A stretch of 64,000 bases of DNA, from NCBI GenBank assembly GCA_016866475.1, contig VGMF01000003.1:83661-147660 (forward strand), written 5' to 3'. The position numbers and the translations under genes were made by a program. Source of the DNA: Chlamydiota bacterium. GTDB lineage: Bacteria; Chlamydiota; Chlamydiia; Chlamydiales; RGXB01. The notes under the pieces were generated by a model, which had not been told where the DNA came from, did no database searches, and was given only the letters and a program-made list of their open reading frames with translations. This document shows positions 20,357 to 27,651 of the stretch, in pieces (the first letter of the stretch is position 1; each line of letters opens with the position of its first letter).

Positions 20357-21907
20357 ATGAAAGATTCAAAAGAGATTATGGTAAGTGTTGATTCAAAAGA
20401 GACGCGTGTGGCGCGCATGAATCAAAAACGACTTACCGAACTCAATATCGAGCGTAAAAAAAATAGGCTCATCTCTGGGAATATCTACAGGGGGAAGGTC
20501 ACAAACATCCTCAAAAATATCCAATCCGCCTTTATCGACATCAATGAAAACGAAAATGGGTTTATCCACATTTCCGACGTGATTGAAAACTCCCAAAAAT
20601 TGCAGGAGATGTTTGAGATCGATTTCGATTTCAAGGGGGAAAAAGCGGTCGAAGACGGCGATATTTCCTCCCACTTCAAATTGGACCAGTATATTCTTGT
20701 TCAAGTTGTGAAGGATCCGATAGGTTCAAAAGGGGCACGCCTCACTTCCAACATTTCGATTGCAGGTCGTTATCTTGTATTGCTTCCAAACTCCCCGTTG
20801 CGCGGTGTATCGCGCAAAATAAAAGAACAACCGGTCCGTAATCGGCTCAAAGACATTATCGAGAAGTTCGAACTCCCCTCAAAAATGGGATTGATTTGCA
20901 GAACCGCAAGCATAAAGGCGACTACGGATCAGCTCATCGACGAGGTGCGCGAACTGATCAACATCTTTGACGAAATCATCGAAAACTACCATAAGGCAAA
21001 AGGGCCCACCTGCCTTTATCGGGAGTCGGACATTACGAAAAAGGTCCTCCTCACTGCGATGGATAAAGGATACGACAGGATCTTGGTCGATCACTACCCC
21101 ATGTTCAACGAACTCAAGAAACTCTACGGACGGCACCCGGACCACCAGCTGTTGAAAATCGAATATTACCGCGATAACCTTCCCCTCTTTGAACGCTTTG
21201 GTGTGGATAAAGAGATTGAGAAGGCACTAAAACGGAAAATATGGTTGCAGAGCGGTGCCTACCTCTATTTCGATCGGACCGAAGCGATGCAGACTATCGA
21301 TGTTAACTCGGGTCGTAGCACGAGCAATATGGAGACAAAAGATGTCGAAGAGGCTCTTGTGCAAATCAACAAAGATGCTGCCCTTGAGATCGCGAGACAG
21401 CTACGGATACGTAATGTCGGCGGTCTTATTGTGATCGATTTTATCGATATGCGTTCAAAAAAGAATCAAAAAAGGGTCTTAGAGACACTCAAAGACGCCC
21501 TATTAGAAGATTCCGCAAAATGTACGGTTTTAGGAATGTCCGAATTTGGCTTGGTGGAAATGACACGCCAGCGCAATAAGGAATCCTTGATTCAAACTCT
21601 TATGTGCCCATGCCCCTATTGCAATGGCCAAGGGACAATACAAAGCCATGAGACCGCATCGATCGAGCTGGAACGTGCGATTAAAAAGCTTGTCATGGAC
21701 GGTGTAAAAGGGAGTGTTGAGATTACACTACACCCCGATCTTGACCGCTACATGGATGGGGAAGACAAGGAATTTTTGGATAAACTTGCTAAAAAAGAGT
21801 CTCTTAAGCTCATTTTTAAGACTGACAATGAACTGCATTTGAATGATTTTCAATTAGCCACACCAAAAGGGAGCTCTAGTGCCTCTAAAAAACACGTCTT
21901 TGTATGA
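20357..21907 (+). CDS. rng: Ribonuclease E/G family
   Basis: GNIYRGKV..I...IQSAFIDI, QVVKDPIGSKGARLT, TEAM.TIDVNSG, IARQLR.RN.GGLIVIDFIDM, CPYCNG.G. Confidence 0.93.
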   Translation: MKDSKEIMVSVDSKETRVARMNQKRLTELNIERKKNRLISGNIYRGKVTNILKNIQSAFIDINENENGFIHISDVIENSQKLQEMFEIDFDFKGEKAVEDGDISSHFKLDQYILVQVVKDPIGSKGARLTSNISIAGRYLVLLPNSPLRGVSRKIKEQPVRNRLKDIIEKFELPSKMGLICRTASIKATTDQLIDEVRELINIFDEIIENYHKAKGPTCLYRESDITKKVLLTAMDKGYDRILVDHYPMFNELKKLYGRHPDHQLLKIEYYRDNLPLFERFGVDKEIEKALKRKIWLQSGAYLYFDRTEAMQTIDVNSGRSTSNMETKDVEEALVQINKDAALEIARQLRIRNVGGLIVIDFIDMRSKKNQKRVLETLKDALLEDSAKCTVLGMSEFGLVEMTRQRNKESLIQTLMCPCPYCNGQGTIQSHETASIELERAIKKLVMDGVKGSVEITLHPDLDRYMDGEDKEFLDKLAKKESLKLIFKTDNELHLNDFQLATPKGSSSASKKHVFV

Positions 21908-22895
21908 AATGCTATCCCAGCCACATCTTTCAGAACAGTTTCGATCTAACATCATAGAATTTATAGATTGTTTTTGCGAAATTAGTGTTAGTAAAGGTTT
22001 GTCGGATGATTTTATCAAATGCAGTATTCAAGAACTTATCCAATATGTTCTTGAGCAGATTGAGTCCCCTTATCCTTTCCAGTCAATGCATATACCCCAG
22101 CAAGATGACAACCGTATGTACGAGATAGGGCTCAAGATTGCTGCTCCCCTTATTCACGGAACGCCCGAGATAGTGAACCTCGACAATCTCCTCGAGGTGA
22201 AGTCGCTTCTGGAGCGGGGTGAAAACGTGATATTCGCAGCGAATCACCAAACAGAACTTGAGCCGCAAATCTTAAGTCTTGCCTGTGATCCCTATGCAAA
22301 AGATCTATTTAAAAATACTTTTTTCGTCGCGGGAGAAAGAGTCACAACCGATCCTATCGCGGCCCCTTTTTCGAGGGGGCGTAAATTATTTTGTATTTAC
22401 GCTAAACGCTACGTGAGTGAAGACAAGAACATCGAGATGGAACGGAGAATGCATAATCTTAAAACGATCAAGCAGATGAAAGAGCTTCTCAACAAGGGTG
22501 GGGCTTGTATTTATGTTGCTTTGGGTGGAGGTCGTGACCGTCCCGATCACAATGGGCAGGTGCAGCTCACCCCTTTTGATCCCAGTAGCGTAGGCCTTTT
22601 TACCCTGCTAAGCCAAACTGCTTTGAAACCCACCCATATATATCCCTTGGCAGTATCGAGTTTCAACATCCTTCCTCCACCAATTTCTATCCAAAAAGAG
22701 CTTGGGGAAAGACGCTGGACTCGCGGTGGTTCTTTAAAAATTGCGATCGGCAAGCGTTTTGACTATTCTCCTTTTTTAAAAATTAAAGACAAAGATGAGT
22801 TGCATTCTGCTCTGACAAACGAGCTATTCTCCAAGTTGACTGCATTATACCAACCATTTGAAGGGGATATCGCACCCTTGAGAGCCATTCACTAA
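21879..22895 (+). CDS. Glycerol-3-phosphate acyltransferase, chlamydial/plastid type
   Basis: GENVI..ANHQTE.EP, FVAGERV..DP.A.PFSRGR.LFCIY, GGGRDRPD, HIYPLA, PPP...KELGE.R. Confidence 0.9.
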   Translation: MPLKNTSLYEMLSQPHLSEQFRSNIIEFIDCFCEISVSKGLSDDFIKCSIQELIQYVLEQIESPYPFQSMHIPQQDDNRMYEIGLKIAAPLIHGTPEIVNLDNLLEVKSLLERGENVIFAANHQTELEPQILSLACDPYAKDLFKNTFFVAGERVTTDPIAAPFSRGRKLFCIYAKRYVSEDKNIEMERRMHNLKTIKQMKELLNKGGACIYVALGGGRDRPDHNGQVQLTPFDPSSVGLFTLLSQTALKPTHIYPLAVSSFNILPPPISIQKELGERRWTRGGSLKIAIGKRFDYSPFLKIKDKDELHSALTNELFSKLTALYQPFEGDIAPLRAIH

Positions 22896-24739
22896 GATTT
22901 AGATTTTAAACGATACAAGCCCAGTGCCCATAGAGGAAACAACACCTCATACCCATGGTATTTCAAATAAAACACCCTTGGAAACCCCGGGGCGTTGAAC
23001 GTAGCATCTTTGAAATTGTCTTTTCTTGATAAAAGATAAAAGACCCCTCGCTCGACCTCTTTTGTGGGTACATTACCGGCAAATAGAAGAGTAATCAACA
23101 CAATTGCTGTGTGAAAAACTGTGCTTTTCTCTTGATTTTGTTTTAATGTAGGGGCGTAGGTGTCGCAAGATTCGCCCCATCCCCCATCTTCATTTTGTTT
23201 TGCGATCAAAAAATGGATCGATTTCTGTACCCACTCTTCTTTGGGATCGACTTTTACCTGCATCAATCCTAAAAGAGCAGAGAATGTTCCATAGAGATAG
23301 TTTGTCCCCCAACGCCCCCACCATGACCCGTCCTGCCTTTGAGTCTTTTTAAGGTAAAAAACGGCTCTTTGAATCGATTCTTTTAACGATATATCGTCAA
23401 GCTCCCCAAAAAAAGAGAGAACTCTTCCGGTGACATCTTCCGACGGAGGATCTAATAGAGCGCCATGATCTGCGAAAGGGATCAAATTTAAATAGTTAAA
23501 ATTCTGGTCTATAGAAAAGGCTGCAAAACCTCCATCTTTGGACTGCATTCCTTGGAGCCAATCCTTTGCAGCGTTAATATTTTTTTTATAGCGATTCTTG
23601 TCGACCGCCGCCATGGCCCATCCACACATGGCAGTGTCATCTAGGTCCGGATAAAAAGGGTTGTTATACTGGAAGGCCCATCCTCCCCCTCTCAACTCCG
23701 GCCTTGACAGGCTCCAATCACCTTGAACTCCGATTAATTGCTTTGTAGCAAGCCAGTCCAATCCTCTCAAAAGAGGCTCTTTTAGGTTATCCAAAGTAAA
23801 TCTTAAAGCGTGCATTCCGATGGATGTATCCCAAACCGGAGAAACGCAAGGTTGCATGAAGTGGTCGCCCTCAACATGAGCTTCAAGAGATAGGATTGCC
23901 TGCAACCCCTTTTGCACCATCGGGTGCTCCATGGAGTAGCCCAAGCTCAAAAGAGCCTTGATCTGATACTCCATGGCAGTATAGATTCCCCCTAATCCAT
24001 GCTCCTTATTATCATGATCCACAATCCATTTAAGTGCTTTTCTTTCGGCATAACGCCTCAATTTTGACGGAATCCAACAATCTAGTTTACGACCCACTTT
24101 GTCAATAAGGTAAAATATACCCCTCAAACCTTTGAAACTGGGTGGAATGTAGGGGACTAAAAGTTCTTTGACATCAATTTTTTTAGGGTTCTTTGCACTA
24201 AAATTTCTTGTCATGGCGAGTGAAAGCGGGATCACTACTGTCCTGGCCCAATAAGCAAATTTCTGCACGCTAAACGGAGACCATAAGGGCTGCAAGATCA
24301 GCTCAACGGGCATCCAAGGGGCTTCTTTGGGCTCTAGTTGTTTGAACTGAACAAGAGTATAACGGGTAAAAACATTAGCCGCTTTGAGACCCCCATGTTG
24401 GCAGATTTTTTTTGCAATTTTAAGCATGTAGGGTTCGTTTAGAGATTCCCCGGCGCACTTCAGAGCGTAGTAGGCTTTAATAGAAGCACTGATGTCATAA
24501 GGACCTCTAGGGTAACTCACCCACCCATCATCATGGATAGTTTTTTTTAGATAGGCAGCCAGTCTCCTTTCCATTGCCGGATCCCTAAAATCTATGGAGT
24601 GCATCAGCAAGATCATCTCCGCAGTGATTGTTGCATCACATTCAAGAGGAAAAACAAGGTAACCTGCGCTACTTTGAGCACGATAAGCTTTTTCTAAAAG
24701 CTGATTTATGAGCGCTGTGACTTCTTCAACAGGAGGCAT
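22892..24739 (-). CDS. shc: Squalene--hopene cyclase
   Basis: DATITAE, SIKAYYALK, YWART...PL, GLGGI, QPCVSPVWDT, GGWAFQY.N..YPDLDDTA, QW-type repeats (Q.KDGGF, Q..DGSW.GRWGTNY.YGT, QNEDGGWGE), GFPRVFYLKYHGY..FPLWAL. Confidence 0.95.
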   Translation of the reverse strand: MPPVEEVTALINQLLEKAYRAQSSAGYLVFPLECDATITAEMILLMHSIDFRDPAMERRLAAYLKKTIHDDGWVSYPRGPYDISASIKAYYALKCAGESLNEPYMLKIAKKICQHGGLKAANVFTRYTLVQFKQLEPKEAPWMPVELILQPLWSPFSVQKFAYWARTVVIPLSLAMTRNFSAKNPKKIDVKELLVPYIPPSFKGLRGIFYLIDKVGRKLDCWIPSKLRRYAERKALKWIVDHDNKEHGLGGIYTAMEYQIKALLSLGYSMEHPMVQKGLQAILSLEAHVEGDHFMQPCVSPVWDTSIGMHALRFTLDNLKEPLLRGLDWLATKQLIGVQGDWSLSRPELRGGGWAFQYNNPFYPDLDDTAMCGWAMAAVDKNRYKKNINAAKDWLQGMQSKDGGFAAFSIDQNFNYLNLIPFADHGALLDPPSEDVTGRVLSFFGELDDISLKESIQRAVFYLKKTQRQDGSWWGRWGTNYLYGTFSALLGLMQVKVDPKEEWVQKSIHFLIAKQNEDGGWGESCDTYAPTLKQNQEKSTVFHTAIVLITLLFAGNVPTKEVERGVFYLLSRKDNFKDATFNAPGFPRVFYLKYHGYEVLFPLWALGLYRLKSKS

Positions 24740-24829
24740 GCCATGTTACCTTGAAATAGGGATCAAAACATCCCATACTGGATTCACCAAAAACCTGTCA
24801 ACTAGGAAGGGTATCGCCTGAAACCGGTT

Positions 24830-25546
24830 TTAAGCCATATTTGTAAAAACGGCATCTACGTCGTCTAAATTTTCCAACCAGTCGATCAATTCTTCATTTT
24901 TTTTCCGATTTTCGTCATCAACCTCGACTAGAGATTTTGGAATTTGTTCAAAGTCCGCCGCCAGAATTTTTACCCCTTTTTGAACGAGTTTATCCTTCAC
25001 CTCCAATAGGTCGTCTAAACCGGTGAATAGAATAAATTCTTCATCATTAGATTCTATTTCATCCACCCCTACATCAAGGGCGGTAAGAAAAAGCGCCTCC
25101 TCTGTAATTGTCTGTTTCTGGATCCGGATCACCCCTTTTTTATCAAATTGAAACAAAACGCTACCGGGCGTTGCAATATTTCCGCCACGCTTGTTTGTGG
25201 CTATGCGCATATCAGAAGAAGTGCGATTTTTATTGTCGGTTATAATCTCAACGACAATCCCGACCCCCCCGTGTCCATAAAGCTCATAAGTGAGAGCGAA
25301 GTATTCCCCCTGATCGGTTGAGCTCGCTTTTTTAATGTTGCGATCAATGTTTTCCTGAGGAAAGTTTGCCTCCTTGGCCCGATCGATCGCTGCTTTGAGG
25401 CGGGGATTCATTTTTGGATCGCCACTACCCCCCTGCTTGACAGCTGTGATAATCTCTTTAGCAACTCGCGAAAATATTTTTCCCCTTTTCGCATCCACTT
25501 TTTCTTTACGTCGCCTGATGTTTGCCCATTTACTATGGCCTGCCAT
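24830..25546 (-). CDS. yebC: YebC/PmpR family protein
   Basis: MAGHSKWANI, NPRL, YE.YG.GG, TDNKNRT, LE.LDDV..VFTN. Confidence 0.96.
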   Translation of the reverse strand: MAGHSKWANIRRRKEKVDAKRGKIFSRVAKEIITAVKQGGSGDPKMNPRLKAAIDRAKEANFPQENIDRNIKKASSTDQGEYFALTYELYGHGGVGIVVEIITDNKNRTSSDMRIATNKRGGNIATPGSVLFQFDKKGVIRIQKQTITEEALFLTALDVGVDEIESNDEEFILFTGLDDLLEVKDKLVQKGVKILAADFEQIPKSLVEVDDENRKKNEELIDWLENLDDVDAVFTNMA

Positions 25547-25547
25547 T

Positions 25548-26054
25548 TTATAACCACTGCTGCATTAAAATTTTATCTCGATACGTCCCATCCTCTTCTT
25601 TCAAGAAATTAGAATGGACCCCATACTCTTCAAATCCTGCTTTAAGGTAAAGTCGACGGGCAGGATTGTCCCTATAAACTTCCAGGTGTAGCAATGAGAC
25701 GGCAAAATCTCTTTTTGCTCTGACTTTGATCTCCTCTAAAATCTGCTTGCCTACCCCCTTACCACGCATTTCAGGATGCACGATGATTGAAAAAAGAGAT
25801 TGATGTTTCAGCTTCTTTACCGGCGTCAGATAGAGATTAAAAAAGCCGACAATATTTCCCTCATTGCGCACCGTAAAAGCCGAGCCAAAGGTTTTTCCAA
25901 AATACCCAATCCAAATCTTGGATGCATCCTCTATCTCAAGCTGACTGATCATCGGAAACCATTTTAAAATATTAGGTTCACTAAGCCAACTTGTTAGAAC
26001 AGGGATCTCCTCTTCTTTAGAAACTTCATACTTCAATTCGATTGGATCTCTCAA
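25548..26054 (-). CDS. GNAT family N-acetyltransferase
   Basis: IIVHPEMRGKGVG, LHLEVY..NPA..LY.K.GF..YG. Confidence 0.88.
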   Translation of the reverse strand: MRDPIELKYEVSKEEEIPVLTSWLSEPNILKWFPMISQLEIEDASKIWIGYFGKTFGSAFTVRNEGNIVGFFNLYLTPVKKLKHQSLFSIIVHPEMRGKGVGKQILEEIKVRAKRDFAVSLLHLEVYRDNPARRLYLKAGFEEYGVHSNFLKEEDGTYRDKILMQQWL

Positions 26055-26553
26055 ACACTACCCTCGCTCTGGTTTCATCGTTAGAAAAACGGACGAATCC
26101 ATTTTGCATAAACACTTTCTTAAATGAGAGCTTCTCTAAAATAGAGAGTAAAGAACAACCCTCATAAATTTCACATTGAATTTTTTCTACAATTTCAAAT
26201 TTAAGGCTAAGATGCACTAAATTCCTTAAAAGCGAAGTTCCTACCCCCCTTTTTTGGAAAGCGGGATCTACGAGAAGATAGGCCGTGGCGTGAATCGCCA
26301 CCTTTTTATAGGGCAAAAGAAAAATAAATCCATAACCAACAGGAACACCATCGAAAACGGCTGTTAAGGCACACTTATACTTGGAGAAATTGACTAAATT
26401 TTTAATAAAAATATCGACATCTTCCTCAGATGAGAGAGGGAACCATTTTTGCAGTTCGGGCTGCATGAGCAGCCTCTTCAAATTTTCTTGGTCATTTTCT
26501 TGAAAATAACGGATATCGTACCGGTTGTCTTTGTTAATGTCCTGTTTATCCAT
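26026..26553 (-). CDS. GNAT family N-acetyltransferase (paralog of the neighbour)
   Basis: LVDPAFQKRGVGTSLL acetyl-CoA motif; shares KWFP and Y/V-KK..H motifs with 25548-26054. Confidence 0.85.
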   Translation of the reverse strand: MDKQDINKDNRYDIRYFQENDQENLKRLLMQPELQKWFPLSSEEDVDIFIKNLVNFSKYKCALTAVFDGVPVGYGFIFLLPYKKVAIHATAYLLVDPAFQKRGVGTSLLRNLVHLSLKFEIVEKIQCEIYEGCSLLSILEKLSFKKVFMQNGFVRFSNDETRARVVFERSNRIEV

Positions 26554-27651
26554 TACGATCCCCTGTTCTTTAAGTAGGACTCTACAAAAGGGTCCAAATC
26601 CCCGTCAAGAACACCCTCTACGTCTGATGTCTCAAATTCGGTCCTTAAATCTTTGCACATCTGATAGGGCTGTAACACATAACTGCGTATTTGAGAACCC
26701 CATCCGTTCACAAGCTGCTCTCCGCTGATATTTTTTAGCGCAGCCTCTTTTTTAGCCACTTCCAACTCGTAGAGACGGTCTTTTAACATCTTCATACACC
26801 GTTCTCTGTTTTGTATCTGACTCCTCTCTTGCTGTGAAGAAACAACTATCCCTGTTTTAAGATGGGTAATGCGTACTGCTGAATCGGTTTTGTTGACATG
26901 CTGGCCACCCGCGCCGGAGGCACGATAGGTATCAATACGAATATCCTCAGGTCTTACCTCGATTGGAATCTCCTCGTCCATAGAGGGGGCAACTTCTACA
27001 GACGCAAAGCTCGTGTGACGCCTCCCCGACGCATCGAACGGAGAAATTCTCACAAGCCGATGGACCCCTTTTTCTGCTTTACAAAAGCCATAGGCATAGT
27101 GAGATTCCACTTGAAAAAGTATATGCTTTAAACCAGCTACTTCCCCCTCAAGCCGGTCCAAAACCAGGTATTTCCAACCCCTTTTTTGAAACCACCTTTC
27201 ATACATTCTAGCCAACATAGAAACCCAGTCGCAGGACTCTGTCCCACCAGCACCTGCATTGATCTCCAAAGTGCAAAACTTGGGGTCAAGTTCCGACGAT
27301 AGCATTCGCTTCAGCTCAATCGAACGTAAATTTTTTTCTATAACACTAAGTTCAGACTCCATTTCAGCAATCAGTGCCGTGTCTTTTGACGATTTCGCCT
27401 CAGGGTAAAATGTTTCAAGATAGTCTGTTGTAGAAAGGATCTGTTCTATGGGCTGGATCCAATCCTTAAGAGCATTCGACTCAGCAATTTTTTTTCTTGC
27501 TTTTTCTTGATCCTCCCAGAACGCAGTGTCTTTCATCTCCTCGTCAAGTTCGCTAAGGCGCAGTTTTTTATAAGCCAAGTCAAAGAAACCTCGCTAGCTC
27601 AAGGATTCTGGTTTTTACGTCCTGTATTCTTGGTGTAAGATCGATCATCAT
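26553..27651 (-). CDS. prfB: Peptide chain release factor 2 (programmed +1 frameshift)
   Basis: 5' segment ATG 27651 MMIDLTPRIQDVKTRILELARFL, then CTT-TGA-C at 27585-27579, continuing in the +1 frame into SPF and GGQ motifs. Confidence 0.96.
27579..27594 (-). promoter_or_regulatory. prfB frameshift site
   Basis: GCGAGGTTT-CTT-TGA-C: internal SD-like GAGGT 5' of the slippery CTT TGA C. Confidence 0.9.

Follow-up and report, generated by a model that had tools for sequence, protein, structure and literature searches.

Hopanoid genes are classically arranged in an hpn cluster that consists of hpnCDE, shc (hpnF), hpnH, hpnG and hpnN. Chlamydiae are known from textbooks as bacteria that scavenge lipids and whose genomes are shrinking. 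The squalene-hopene cyclase (SHC) of Alicyclobacillus acidocaldarius (1gsz, 2sqc, 3sqc) has the same two-domain architecture, DxDDTA motif and cavity residues as the chlamydial protein described here. Shc1 of Schizosaccharomyces japonicus is an SHC gained by horizontal transfer, according to the accessible part of the report (PMC11976957). It likewise represents a hopanoid cyclase moved into an otherwise sterol-reliant lineage, but the recipient there is a squalene-making eukaryote, whereas the recipient here is a reduced bacterium that would also have acquired a squalene synthase (Sqs). Single-enzyme Sqs is described as prone to lateral transfer in the available part of the study of Santana-Molina et al. 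2020 (PMC7306690). The accessible part of another article (PMC12414744) reports 'SHC-like' proteins of unknown function from PVC bacteria, and its 2025 supplementary alignment contains MBM3195757, a close relative of the present protein in a 67%-identity cluster, which is labelled squalene-hopene cyclase and passes unremarked in that part of the text. A published description of chlamydial hopanoid synthesis was not found in the literature. The present case seems to be a known kind of enzyme in an unexpected lineage, with chlamydial hopanoid synthesis seemingly undescribed.

The shc gene (22892..24739, minus strand) is located 22.9 kb into the 64-kb stretch of DNA analysed (the window), inside a 161-kb contig of a metagenome-assembled genome of 28 contigs (1.42 Mb, 96.9% complete). 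It is likely that this gene is functional and completes a minimal hopanoid branch of unclustered genes, which was gained by transfer and is predicted to yield C30 products. The integrity of the gene, its motifs and partner genes, its distribution, its place in the phylogeny and its synteny, the selection on it and the continuity of the assembly were examined directly.

The shc ORF starts with ATG and encodes 615 aa without internal stops, according to the ORF list and the translation. The protein scores 579.7 bits with the NCBIfam equivalog model TIGR01507 (hopene_cyclase, EC 5.4.99.17, cut-off 431.1) over model positions 14-636 of 640, and the search of the whole genome with this model gives a stop-free match of 580.1 bits. 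Enzymes of this class form hop-22(29)-ene and hopan-22-ol from squalene. The scores with the tetrahymanol-synthase and oxidosqualene-cyclase models are 154 bits (cut-off 500) and 139 bits (cut-off 851) respectively. The Pfam domains SQHop_cyclase_N (PF13249, 275.5 bits, 6.3e-82) and SQHop_cyclase_C (PF13243, 375.5 bits) account for the two alpha/alpha-barrel domain architecture of SHCs. DLDDTA occupies residues 365-370 within YPDLDDTA and is aligned with D374-A379 of 1gsz, and FYLKYHGY occupies residues 590-597. Under the definition of the QW motif that we take to be the usual one, three canonical Q..G.W repeats (334, 467, 515) and one degenerate repeat (QSKDGGF at 399, with F replacing W) are present.

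The phmmer alignment with the A. acidocaldarius SHC (1gsz) covers residues 12-610 (E 1.4e-113), and the chlamydial protein is identical to it at D374/D376/D377, D313, W312, F365, W169, I261, W489, Y495, F601, F605, L607, Y609, Y612 and E45. All nine of the residues that we assume to be the cavity aromatics of the Alicyclobacillus enzyme (W169, W312, F365, W489, Y495, F601, F605, Y609, Y612) are thus included. An Atlas model of the protein has a pTM of 0.92 and a TM of 0.97-0.98 to SHC clusters. The sequence confirms that the ORF encodes a full-length canonical SHC, and the enzyme looks intact and putatively active, as the initial annotation had proposed from the length and the same three kinds of motif. 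Compared with the Alicyclobacillus enzyme, the chlamydial protein has H451R, Y420F, E93K and R127N, which are the residues that 18 aligned SHCs usually have at these positions, and Y-T for Q262-P263, which is specific to the chlamydial clade. The latter change lies near the termination site and appears as GIYTAM where proteobacterial SHCs have AIFPAM. Near active-site positions, AFS or AFN is found in the chlamydial clade where others have AFD.

No other squalene or hpn gene is present in the window, and to this extent shc is solitary, as first described. The genome, however, contains an unlinked Sqs-type gene and a farnesyl diphosphate (FPP)-synthase-like (IspA-like prenyl synthase) gene, the latter on contig C2. 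A pathway gene that appears solitary in a window can therefore mislead, because its partner gene may be on another contig. The Sqs-type gene (G000:C4:126746-127636, 296 aa) is the only SQS_PSY gene in the genome, and shc is on contig C3. Its protein scores 129.8 bits with Pfam PF00494. The best of six NCBIfam models is squal_synth (TIGR01559) at 101.1 bits, ahead of HpnD (51.1), HpnC (40.8) and CrtB (37.8), and this score is below the cut-off of 286.75, so that the protein is termed Sqs-like rather than confirmed Sqs. It retains the motifs SRTFA, DTIED, YCYYVAG and NILKDIEQD. DTIED and DIEQD are aligned with DTLED and DYLED of human squalene synthase, and both of these Asp-rich motifs are invariant in an alignment of 43 sequences. 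Sequence matches reach 60 bits to squalene synthases versus 22-30 bits to CrtM. The predicted model has a pLDDT of 93.5, and its TMq is 0.81-0.84 to human and T. cruzi SQS (E ~1e-10 to 1e-8) and 0.58-0.61 to CrtM-type enzymes (E ~1e-5 to 1e-6). The predicted fold resembles that of squalene synthase more closely than those of dehydrosqualene or phytoene synthases.

The nearest named relatives of the Sqs-like protein are those of Methylococcales and other Gammaproteobacteria (35-40% identity), which have the catalytic motifs in common with it. In contrast to the Methylococcales proteins, it is not linked to shc and lies under the TIGR01559 cut-off, and it is shorter than its proteobacterial relatives by ~65 residues (296 vs ~360 aa), with no N-terminal extension, no C-terminal tail and two loops of 17 and 7 residues missing. 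NADPH-dependent squalene formation is therefore inferred for this protein. The MEP route to isoprenoid precursors, which had been read from ispD, is present: ispD (30338..30967, plus strand) matches TIGR00453 at 119.8 bits, below its cut-off of 181.3, and dxs, ispG and ispH elsewhere in the genome all exceed their model cut-offs.

The proposed check of the rest of the genome for squalene and hpn genes was run with the profile models TIGR03464/5/7, TIGR03470, TIGR03468 and TIGR03480; apart from the Sqs-type and FPP-synthase-like genes, a full hpn pathway is absent. The whole genome gives no match to the radical-SAM adenosylhopane synthase HpnH (TIGR03470, E <= 0.01), the nucleosidase HpnG (TIGR03468) or the transporter HpnN (TIGR03480). 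HpnE gives five matches in the whole genome, all under the cut-off of 283 (17-27 bits, first 27-42 model positions); these candidates were rejected as FAD-binding N termini only. With the single SQS_PSY gene, the three-enzyme HpnC/HpnD/HpnE squalene route was likewise not found in the genome. Thus, the genome has the cyclase in common with classical hpn clusters, but differs from them in the lack of clustering and of an HpnC/D pair, and in that HpnE, HpnH, HpnG and HpnN were not found at the family level. Because HpnH, HpnG and HpnN gave no match, the products are predicted to stay unextended C30 compounds. A sterol-free setting is made slightly less likely by an ERG4/ERG24 sterol reductase that is also encoded in the genome.

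Enzyme activity, product, membrane location and physiological role are inferred, and the pathway would probably operate as follows. The MEP pathway would supply IPP and DMAPP, the IspA-like prenyl synthase would convert these to farnesyl diphosphate, and the compact Sqs-type enzyme encoded on the other contig would form squalene. The DLDD aspartates of the SHC would then protonate the terminal double bond of squalene, which would be folded into the pentacyclic hopenyl cation. The predicted products are the C30 hopanoids diploptene and diplopterol, without extended bacteriohopanepolyols, and these would enter the membranes of the bacterium itself and order them in the manner of sterols. The gene content suggests that this lake-water chlamydial lineage is probably able to make simple hopanoids. 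The ancestor of the clade probably took shc from a lineage of the Gamma/Beta-proteobacteria type, and sqs from a similar source. The gene would have landed in the slot between rng-acyltransferase and yebC, which elsewhere holds an insulinase-type protease, and would have been kept by purifying selection since.

SHC is found in five of the six other species of the genus; in the sixth (G002), the genes on either side of the slot are truncated by the ends of contigs. Sqs is also found in five of the six, with the miss in a genome that is 72% complete (G003), and its slot is identical in 5/5 genomes. Surveys of 400 genomes each, which are samples with G043 left unscored in both, detect SHC in six genomes of the order, all of this genus (1/216 genera), and in four genomes of the phylum (1/212 genera). 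The survey of Chlamydiae that had been called for thus shows that shc is not widespread. Among the 80 matches listed in a search of metagenome contigs with alignment A3, two are chlamydial-type loci (L140, L141). The same kind of search with P0011 alone gives 36 pattern matches and no relatives. A search of genome contigs gives at least one chlamydial locus among the 80 matches listed and is unusable as a survey.

Chlamydial SHCs group together as a single clade (SH-aLRT 100), which is nested in a larger clade of 27 rows (support 99). The named members of the larger clade are all Gamma/Beta-proteobacteria, and a second tree agrees on this placement. The immediate sister of the chlamydial clade is P0122. 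The chlamydial clade is deep (59-62% identity to its outer members P0009-P0011), and its stem is long (0.85 + 0.96 changes per site); together with GIYTAM, this stem means that the product ratio or identity could differ. The nearest named SHCs among the matches listed are those of Methylomonas, Methylobacter, Pseudomonas, Paraburkholderia, Nitrosomonas and a Legionellales MAG (41-47% identity). In comparison with the Gamma/Beta-proteobacterial SHCs, the chlamydial proteins are 30-50 residues shorter N-terminally and have the long stem, and no hpn tailoring or transport gene was found in the genome that carries shc. The dN/dS values between G000, the present genome, and G001 are 0.104 (SHC) and 0.040 (Sqs), and purifying selection on both genes is strong. 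The GC content of shc is identical to the coding mean (43.8%), and its codon-usage score is at the 71st percentile; its GC content is ameliorated. The sequences point to one old horizontal acquisition of the chlamydial shc. The earlier suggestion of horizontal acquisition has thus become very probable from the clade nesting and the single-genus distribution. The SHC phylogeny proposed as a check supports nesting among SHCs of the Gamma/Beta-proteobacteria type, in trees that contain no named Planctomycetota or Verrucomicrobiota SHCs.

The shc gene is located between two conserved chlamydial blocks (rng-acyltransferase and yebC-GNAT-GNAT-prfB), in agreement with the initial annotation. The left block contains an RNase G/E family ribonuclease (20357..21907, plus strand; TIGR00757, 496.2 bits) and ends with a PlsB-like acyltransferase (21879..22895, plus strand), which is convergent with shc and overlaps it at the shc stop by 4 nt. 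This overlap is as first described, but the name GPAT is plausible only: the sole Pfam match is PF01553 (Acyltransferase, 47.8 bits), and no NCBIfam model matches this ORF. The acyltransferase is found in 40/41 genomes and adjoins RNase G in all 29 loci of relatives examined. The right block begins with a yebC/pmpR-family regulator (24830..25546, minus strand; TIGR01033, 302.4 bits), which is oriented like shc, lies 90 nt upstream of it and is present in 41/41 genomes. The shc slot is not an empty junction, because it is the site of an insulinase-type M16 protease in 24 of the 33 other chlamydial families. This protease is absent from the shc-bearing genus, which explains why partial ORFs 3' of the acyltransferase in other families gave almost no tblastn matches against G000. 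The slot is identical in all five genomes of the genus that carry shc and in the two metagenome contigs L140 and L141.

Self-made squalene is a likelier substrate of the cyclase than the host-derived squalene that the initial annotation had also considered, because Sqs is co-conserved with shc across the genus. It is improbable that the cyclase works mainly on host squalene while the SQS_PSY protein makes, for example, presqualene diphosphate or dehydrosqualene. The genome is that of an energy parasite (five TLC nucleotide-transporter matches) and encodes the ERG4/ERG24 sterol reductase, so that host isoprenoid lipids are probably within reach, and the SQS_PSY protein, at 296 aa, has the size of CrtM and scores under the squal_synth cut-off. 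However, Sqs and SHC share their narrow distribution and their strong purifying selection, both sequence and fold (TMq against CrtM-type enzymes ~0.6) favour squalene synthase over CrtM, and the HpnE amine-oxidase model revealed no carotenoid-pathway desaturase, only weak FAD-fold matches. It is also rather unlikely that the cyclase is a diverged one, with another pentacyclic or partly cyclised triterpenoid as its main product or with another polyprenoid substrate. The long stem and the substitutions GIYTAM and AFS/AFN are compatible with such divergence, as is the occurrence in PVC bacteria of 'SHC-like' proteins of the triterpenoid-cyclase superfamily, so far as the accessible text describes them (PMC12414744). 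Nevertheless, shc exceeds the hopene_cyclase equivalog cut-off by 148 bits, with the two other cyclase models far under theirs, conserves all initiation and cavity residues checked, and nests in bona fide SHCs rather than in a separate SHC-like clade.

Vertical descent of shc in this lineage from a PVC or chlamydial ancestor, with loss in all other lineages, is very unlikely, although its composition is indistinguishable from that of the genome, its clade is deep and the trees are without named PVC SHCs. Presence in one of 216 and one of 212 genera would require dozens of independent losses, and the slot holds another conserved gene in most other families. Vertical PVC descent is disfavoured because of this narrow distribution and of the well-supported nesting among Proteobacteria, in trees from which named PVC SHCs are absent. 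The notion that shc is foreign to the chlamydial genome and was placed in it by faulty binning or a chimeric assembly can practically be dismissed; it arises solely from the metagenome-assembled status of the genome, and no evidence for it was found. The gene has chlamydial genes on both flanks within its contig, contamination of the genome is estimated at 0.08%, and the arrangement recurs in the assemblies of five other species and in the two metagenome contigs. Both shc junctions are bridged without differences by contigs from 3/3 further lake-water DNA runs, counting DNA runs not flagged as a possible source, so that the check for a chimeric join gives none.

It is conceivable, but rather doubtful, that lake-water chlamydiae imported a two-gene squalene-to-hopene module, gave up the insulinase-type protease and gained their own sterol surrogate for the envelope. 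If so, the outer membrane of the infectious stage would be made stiffer by C30 hopanoids, and the bacteria could survive for long as free cells in the water column or grow in protists from which little usable sterol can be had. This lineage would be the first among chlamydiae to make its polycyclic membrane lipid instead of stealing it, and diploptene and diplopterol would have a new source in the plankton. A lineage that gains and keeps a de novo route to a sterol-like lipid would run counter to the chlamydial trend of reduction. It would provide a testable two-gene case of how an obligate intracellular bacterium accommodates a membrane-lipid module obtained by horizontal transfer, and an unexpected planktonic, host-associated addition to the possible producers of C30 hopanoid biomarkers in lakes and sediments.

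X20, a freshwater-sediment metatranscriptome, is the only RNA-library holder with matching contigs. These are a 269-nt contig on 23039-23307 (12 differences) and a 306-nt contig on 25459-25764 (4 differences), which are not counted as shc expression, because they come from a related strain and DNA carry-over is possible. A scan finds no terminator-like site on the minus strand between yebC and shc, and read-through transcription is therefore possible. Upstream of shc, a putative Shine-Dalgarno-like AAGGT (24748..24752, minus strand) is located 8 nt ahead of the ATG, and a promoter-like element (24772..24801, minus strand) consists of TTGACA at 24801-24796, a spacer of 18 nt and TATGGG at 24777-24772. 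Both sequences are present as originally described, but a consensus promoter scan omits the element, the -10 hexamer of which matches at 3/6 positions without the final T, and the four promoter-like matches in the region are not in excess of those in shuffled sequences (5.3 +/- 2.2). TTGACA is invariant in 7/7 aligned yebC-shc intergenic regions of relatives, the rest of which has diverged, and a -10-like hexamer beginning with TA is found at a similar distance from it in these regions. The element is retained as a candidate promoter because of this conservation of TTGACA.

The shc gene (22892-24739, minus strand) has 615 codons with an ATG start and zero internal stops, and its product (SHC) contains both squalene-hopene cyclase domains in a Pfam search, three canonical QW motifs and one degenerate one, and FYLKYHGY at residues 590-597. 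SHC scores 579.7 bits on the NCBIfam hopene_cyclase equivalog (cut-off, 431.1) and is far under the cut-offs of the tetrahymanol-synthase and oxidosqualene-cyclase models of NCBIfam. Among solved structures it is closest to the Alicyclobacillus acidocaldarius enzyme, to which residues 12-610 are aligned with an E value of 1.4e-113. The proton-donor motif DLDDTA at residues 365-370 matches D374-A379 of this enzyme, and D313, W312, F365, W169, I261, W489, Y495, F601, F605, L607, Y609, Y612 and E45 are also kept. SHC differs from this enzyme by H451R, Y420F, E93K and R127N, and the residues at these positions are family-normal in an 18-sequence SHC alignment. At the Q262/P263 site, GIYTAM is specific to the chlamydial SHC clade, whereas the proteobacterial enzymes have AIFPAM. 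The initial annotation, which described an intact-looking SHC with the catalytic motif, QW repeats and FYLKYHGY, is borne out by the ORF, the Pfam domains, the equivalog score and the alignment with one structure. The 4-nt overlap of shc with the convergent acyltransferase gene is confirmed by the coordinates, and TTGACA-N18-TATGGG at 24801-24772 and AAGGT at 24752-24748 are read in the sequence as it had described them. These features mark shc as a genuine hopanoid cyclase gene that is both intact and conserved.

The window spans C3:83661-147660 of the source genome (G000), which consists of 1,419,342 bases in 28 contigs, with an estimated completeness of 96.88% and an estimated contamination of 0.08%. 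The genome is regarded as chlamydia-like because the TLC family of nucleotide transporters is matched five times in it and because the rng-acyltransferase pair adjoining shc is common to every other family of the order examined. At least 0.91 of the sampled words of shc are present in 19 lake-water metagenome runs, 15 of which are flagged as possible sources. The junctions of shc were checked with contigs from three runs not flagged as a possible source (X16, X17 and X19). Both the acyltransferase/shc and shc/yebC junctions are crossed with 0 differences in all three runs (records 1 and 2 of X16, 11 and 12 of X17, and 18 and 20 of X19). An assembly artefact is ruled out by these spanning contigs, and the chimeric or contaminant join that the initial annotation had held up against its own reading was looked for in these runs and not found.

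That annotation called shc solitary, which is correct within the window but not for the whole genome. A whole-genome PF00494 search detects exactly one squalene/phytoene-synthase gene in G000, which is located on contig C4 (126746-127636, minus strand) and encodes a 296-aa Sqs-like protein. The best NCBIfam model for this protein is squalene synthase, ahead of HpnD, HpnC and CrtB, with a score of 101 bits that is well under the model cut-off of 286.75 bits. Its best solved sequence relatives are human squalene synthases (60 bits, vs 22-30 bits for CrtM-type enzymes), and its predicted model (pLDDT 93.5) gives a TMq of 0.81-0.84 to human and Trypanosoma squalene synthases and of about 0.6 to CrtM-type enzymes. 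Its nearest named relatives are the enzymes of about 360 aa from Methylococcales and other Gammaproteobacteria (35-40% identity), compared with which it lacks the N-terminal extension, the C-terminal tail and two loops of 17 and 7 residues, but keeps all conserved motifs. The GC3 of sqs is unusually high at 0.598, which ranks at the 99.4th percentile among 877 long ORFs, and its codon-usage score is average. Natural fusions of an SQS domain with SHC exist elsewhere (P0124, 1009 aa; P0128, 1038 aa), for one of which JGI uses the name 'squalene-hopene cyclase/farnesyl-diphosphate farnesyltransferase', and an Atlas structure cluster, whose commonest source is Myxococcota, has SQS_PSY in 100% of its members.

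An FPP-synthase-like prenyl synthase gene is present on contig C2. The MEP route, which the initial annotation had proposed from ispD in the window, is also supported by dxs, ispH and ispG, which exceed their cut-offs elsewhere in the genome. Whole-genome profile searches give 0 matches to HpnH, HpnG and HpnN, and the HpnE model gives short FAD-fold matches only. The absence of these three genes, together with the presence of the Sqs-like, FPP-synthase-like and MEP genes, predicts a minimal pathway in which FPP is converted to squalene and squalene to C30 hopanoids, with no lengthening of the side chain.

In the solved SHC, squalene lies in the central cavity, where its C3 is protonated by an aspartate and the cation cascade is steered by aromatic residues. 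By homology, C3 of squalene would be protonated by the DLDD aspartate in the cavity of the chlamydial enzyme, and the conserved aromatic residues would steer the cascade to the hopenyl cation, which would be quenched either by deprotonation, to give diploptene, or by water, to give diplopterol. The products would stay C30, because HpnH is absent. They would most likely serve to order the bacterium's own membranes, by analogy with hopanoids elsewhere. A full-length sterol reductase of the ERG4/ERG24 family is encoded in G000 as well (contig C7, 36408-37700; L264:1465-2757, plus strand; 430 aa, 201 bits). Host sterols are probably still handled by the organism, and the host need not be strictly free of sterols. 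The neighbours of the reductase gene are unrelated (a pterin-4a-carbinolamine dehydratase gene and an aldose-epimerase-like gene).

Of the six other species in the genus, five carry shc, and a search of 34 representatives from other families finds it in none. The genus member in which it is missed is G002, where the interval is unassembled: the acyltransferase gene is truncated by the start of a contig and yebC by the end of one. In two overlapping surveys, both of which are samples and leave genome G043 unscored, shc is found in 6 of 400 genomes of the order (one of 216 genera) and in 4 of 400 genomes of the phylum (one of 212 genera), in each case in this genus alone. Thus, shc is not widespread in the Chlamydiae sampled, the point on which the initial annotation had called for a survey. 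The sqs gene is present in five of the six other genus members, the exception being a 72%-complete genome. Outside the genus, Sqs gives two weak matches, a 30%-identical 377-aa SQS_PSY ORF in G015 (locus L016, G015:C35:2897-3652) and a fragmentary match in G032. G015 is from another chlamydial family, and no SHC was found in this genome. In the protein databases, the chlamydial SHC clade is represented by about ten more clusters, defined at 90% identity, that are 59-93% identical, beyond which identity falls to 48% for P0122 and 44-47% for proteobacterial enzymes.

The position of shc was described in the initial annotation as the junction of two conserved blocks. The blocks do flank shc, but the slot between them is not empty in other families. 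In 24 of 33 genomes of these families, an insulinase-type M16 peptidase gene of about 950 codons is located directly 3' of the acyltransferase gene on the same strand (L250-L258, compared with 22892-24739 of the window), and in five of these 24 (G025, G027, G007, G010 and G038) a convergent yebC follows immediately, precisely the setting in which shc lies in G000. The middle domain of the peptidase, PF16187, is detected in 31 of 34 other-family representatives and in none of the seven genomes of this genus. A tblastn search of G000 with three peptidase queries gives one weak 26% match elsewhere and nothing else. The shc gene, which runs on the opposite strand, thus lies where a conserved protease gene stands in other chlamydial families, and this lineage has lost that protease, either in one event with the insertion of shc or separately. 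An outer member of the SHC clade, P0010 (62% identity), sits on an 86.7-kb contig, 21.8 kb of which has the same order, pcrA ... rng-acyltransferase-shc-yebC-GNAT-GNAT-prfB ... glycosyltransferases, with an RNase G 85% identical, indicating that shc was already in the slot in a deeper ancestor.

The SHC phylogeny was built as two maximum-likelihood trees (65 rows, LG+G4; 42 rows, LG+C20+F+G4), which omit many of 150 listed cluster representatives, namely those that are fragmentary, fused or very long. The chlamydial SHCs form one clade in both trees (SH-aLRT 100) with P0122 as sister (99-100), and in the LG+C20+F+G4 tree this pair lies inside a 27-row clade with a support of 99. The named members of this clade are all Gamma- or Beta-proteobacteria (Pseudomonas, Paraburkholderia, Nitrosomonas, Methylobacter, Thiotrichaceae and a Legionellales MAG). 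Vertical descent within the PVC bacteria is unlikely, judging from the narrow distribution and this nesting, in trees that include no named Planctomycetota or Verrucomicrobiota SHC. The same two observations make the horizontal acquisition suggested initially very probable. The transfer is old: the GC content of shc (43.8%) equals that of the genome and its codon usage is ordinary. A single chlamydial lineage carries this cyclase gene of predicted activity along with a predicted squalene supply of its own, and an old horizontal transfer apparently brought shc to the locus of the lost protease. The Legionellales SHC (L055, CAJWRJ010000002.1; MAG titled uncultured Legionellales; 43% identity) is among the nearest named relatives, and Legionellales, like the chlamydiae, includes many intracellular bacteria.

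Both shc and sqs keep their positions across the genus, and their dN/dS values, taken for G000 against G001 as the closest relative, are 0.104 and 0.040 respectively, more distant pairs being saturated at synonymous sites. The yebC-shc spacer (90 nt) is poorly conserved overall, but TTGACA is invariant in seven of seven sequences, with a TA-initial hexamer at a similar distance after it. The invariance of TTGACA supports a dedicated promoter for shc, although a simple consensus promoter scan does not list the element. Read-through transcription from yebC is also possible, because a terminator scan detects no terminator-like site on the shc strand of this interval. The RNA library X20, a freshwater-sediment metatranscriptome, gives one shc-region contig, which belongs to a related strain and may stem from carried-over DNA.

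SHC as a kind of enzyme is well known, and chlamydial SHC proteins are already named by public annotation pipelines. A full-text search, which covered few supplements, found no published description of a chlamydial cyclase or of chlamydial hopanoids. In the accessible parts of three cyclase and hopanoid surveys (PMC7306690, PMC12414744 and the preprint PMC12324291), Chlamydiae are not named among SHC holders, and those of PMC12414744 mention PVC bacteria for an 'SHC-like' clade only. The supplementary alignment of PMC12414744 contains one sequence of the chlamydial clade, MBM3195757, labelled squalene-hopene cyclase, Chlamydiae bacterium, which is the same as protein P0283. A study of chlamydiae from sponges refers to sterol reductases but not to squalene or hopanoids. 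The presence of SHC in Chlamydiota, its minimal two-gene form and the history of its locus appear to be undescribed so far.

Between yebC and prfB, two GNAT acetyltransferase genes lie in tandem and overlap (168 and 175 aa; 25548-26553, minus strand), and the pair is kept in the related loci L140 and L141. The prfB ORF (26553-27578, minus strand) has a TTG start and agrees with the RF2 model only from position 20 onwards, the pattern that the usual programmed +1 frameshift near the prfB start would give. A depth spike with loose ends at 26888-27131, seen in all three DNA runs, represents contigs of other organisms on a conserved stretch of prfB. At 31923-32768 (plus strand), a family-11 glycosyltransferase gene (fucosyltransferase-type Pfam family, 58.5 bits) adjoins a GT2 gene, and in the deeper relative L141 this family occurs twice in tandem inside one 591-aa ORF (L141:1940-3715).
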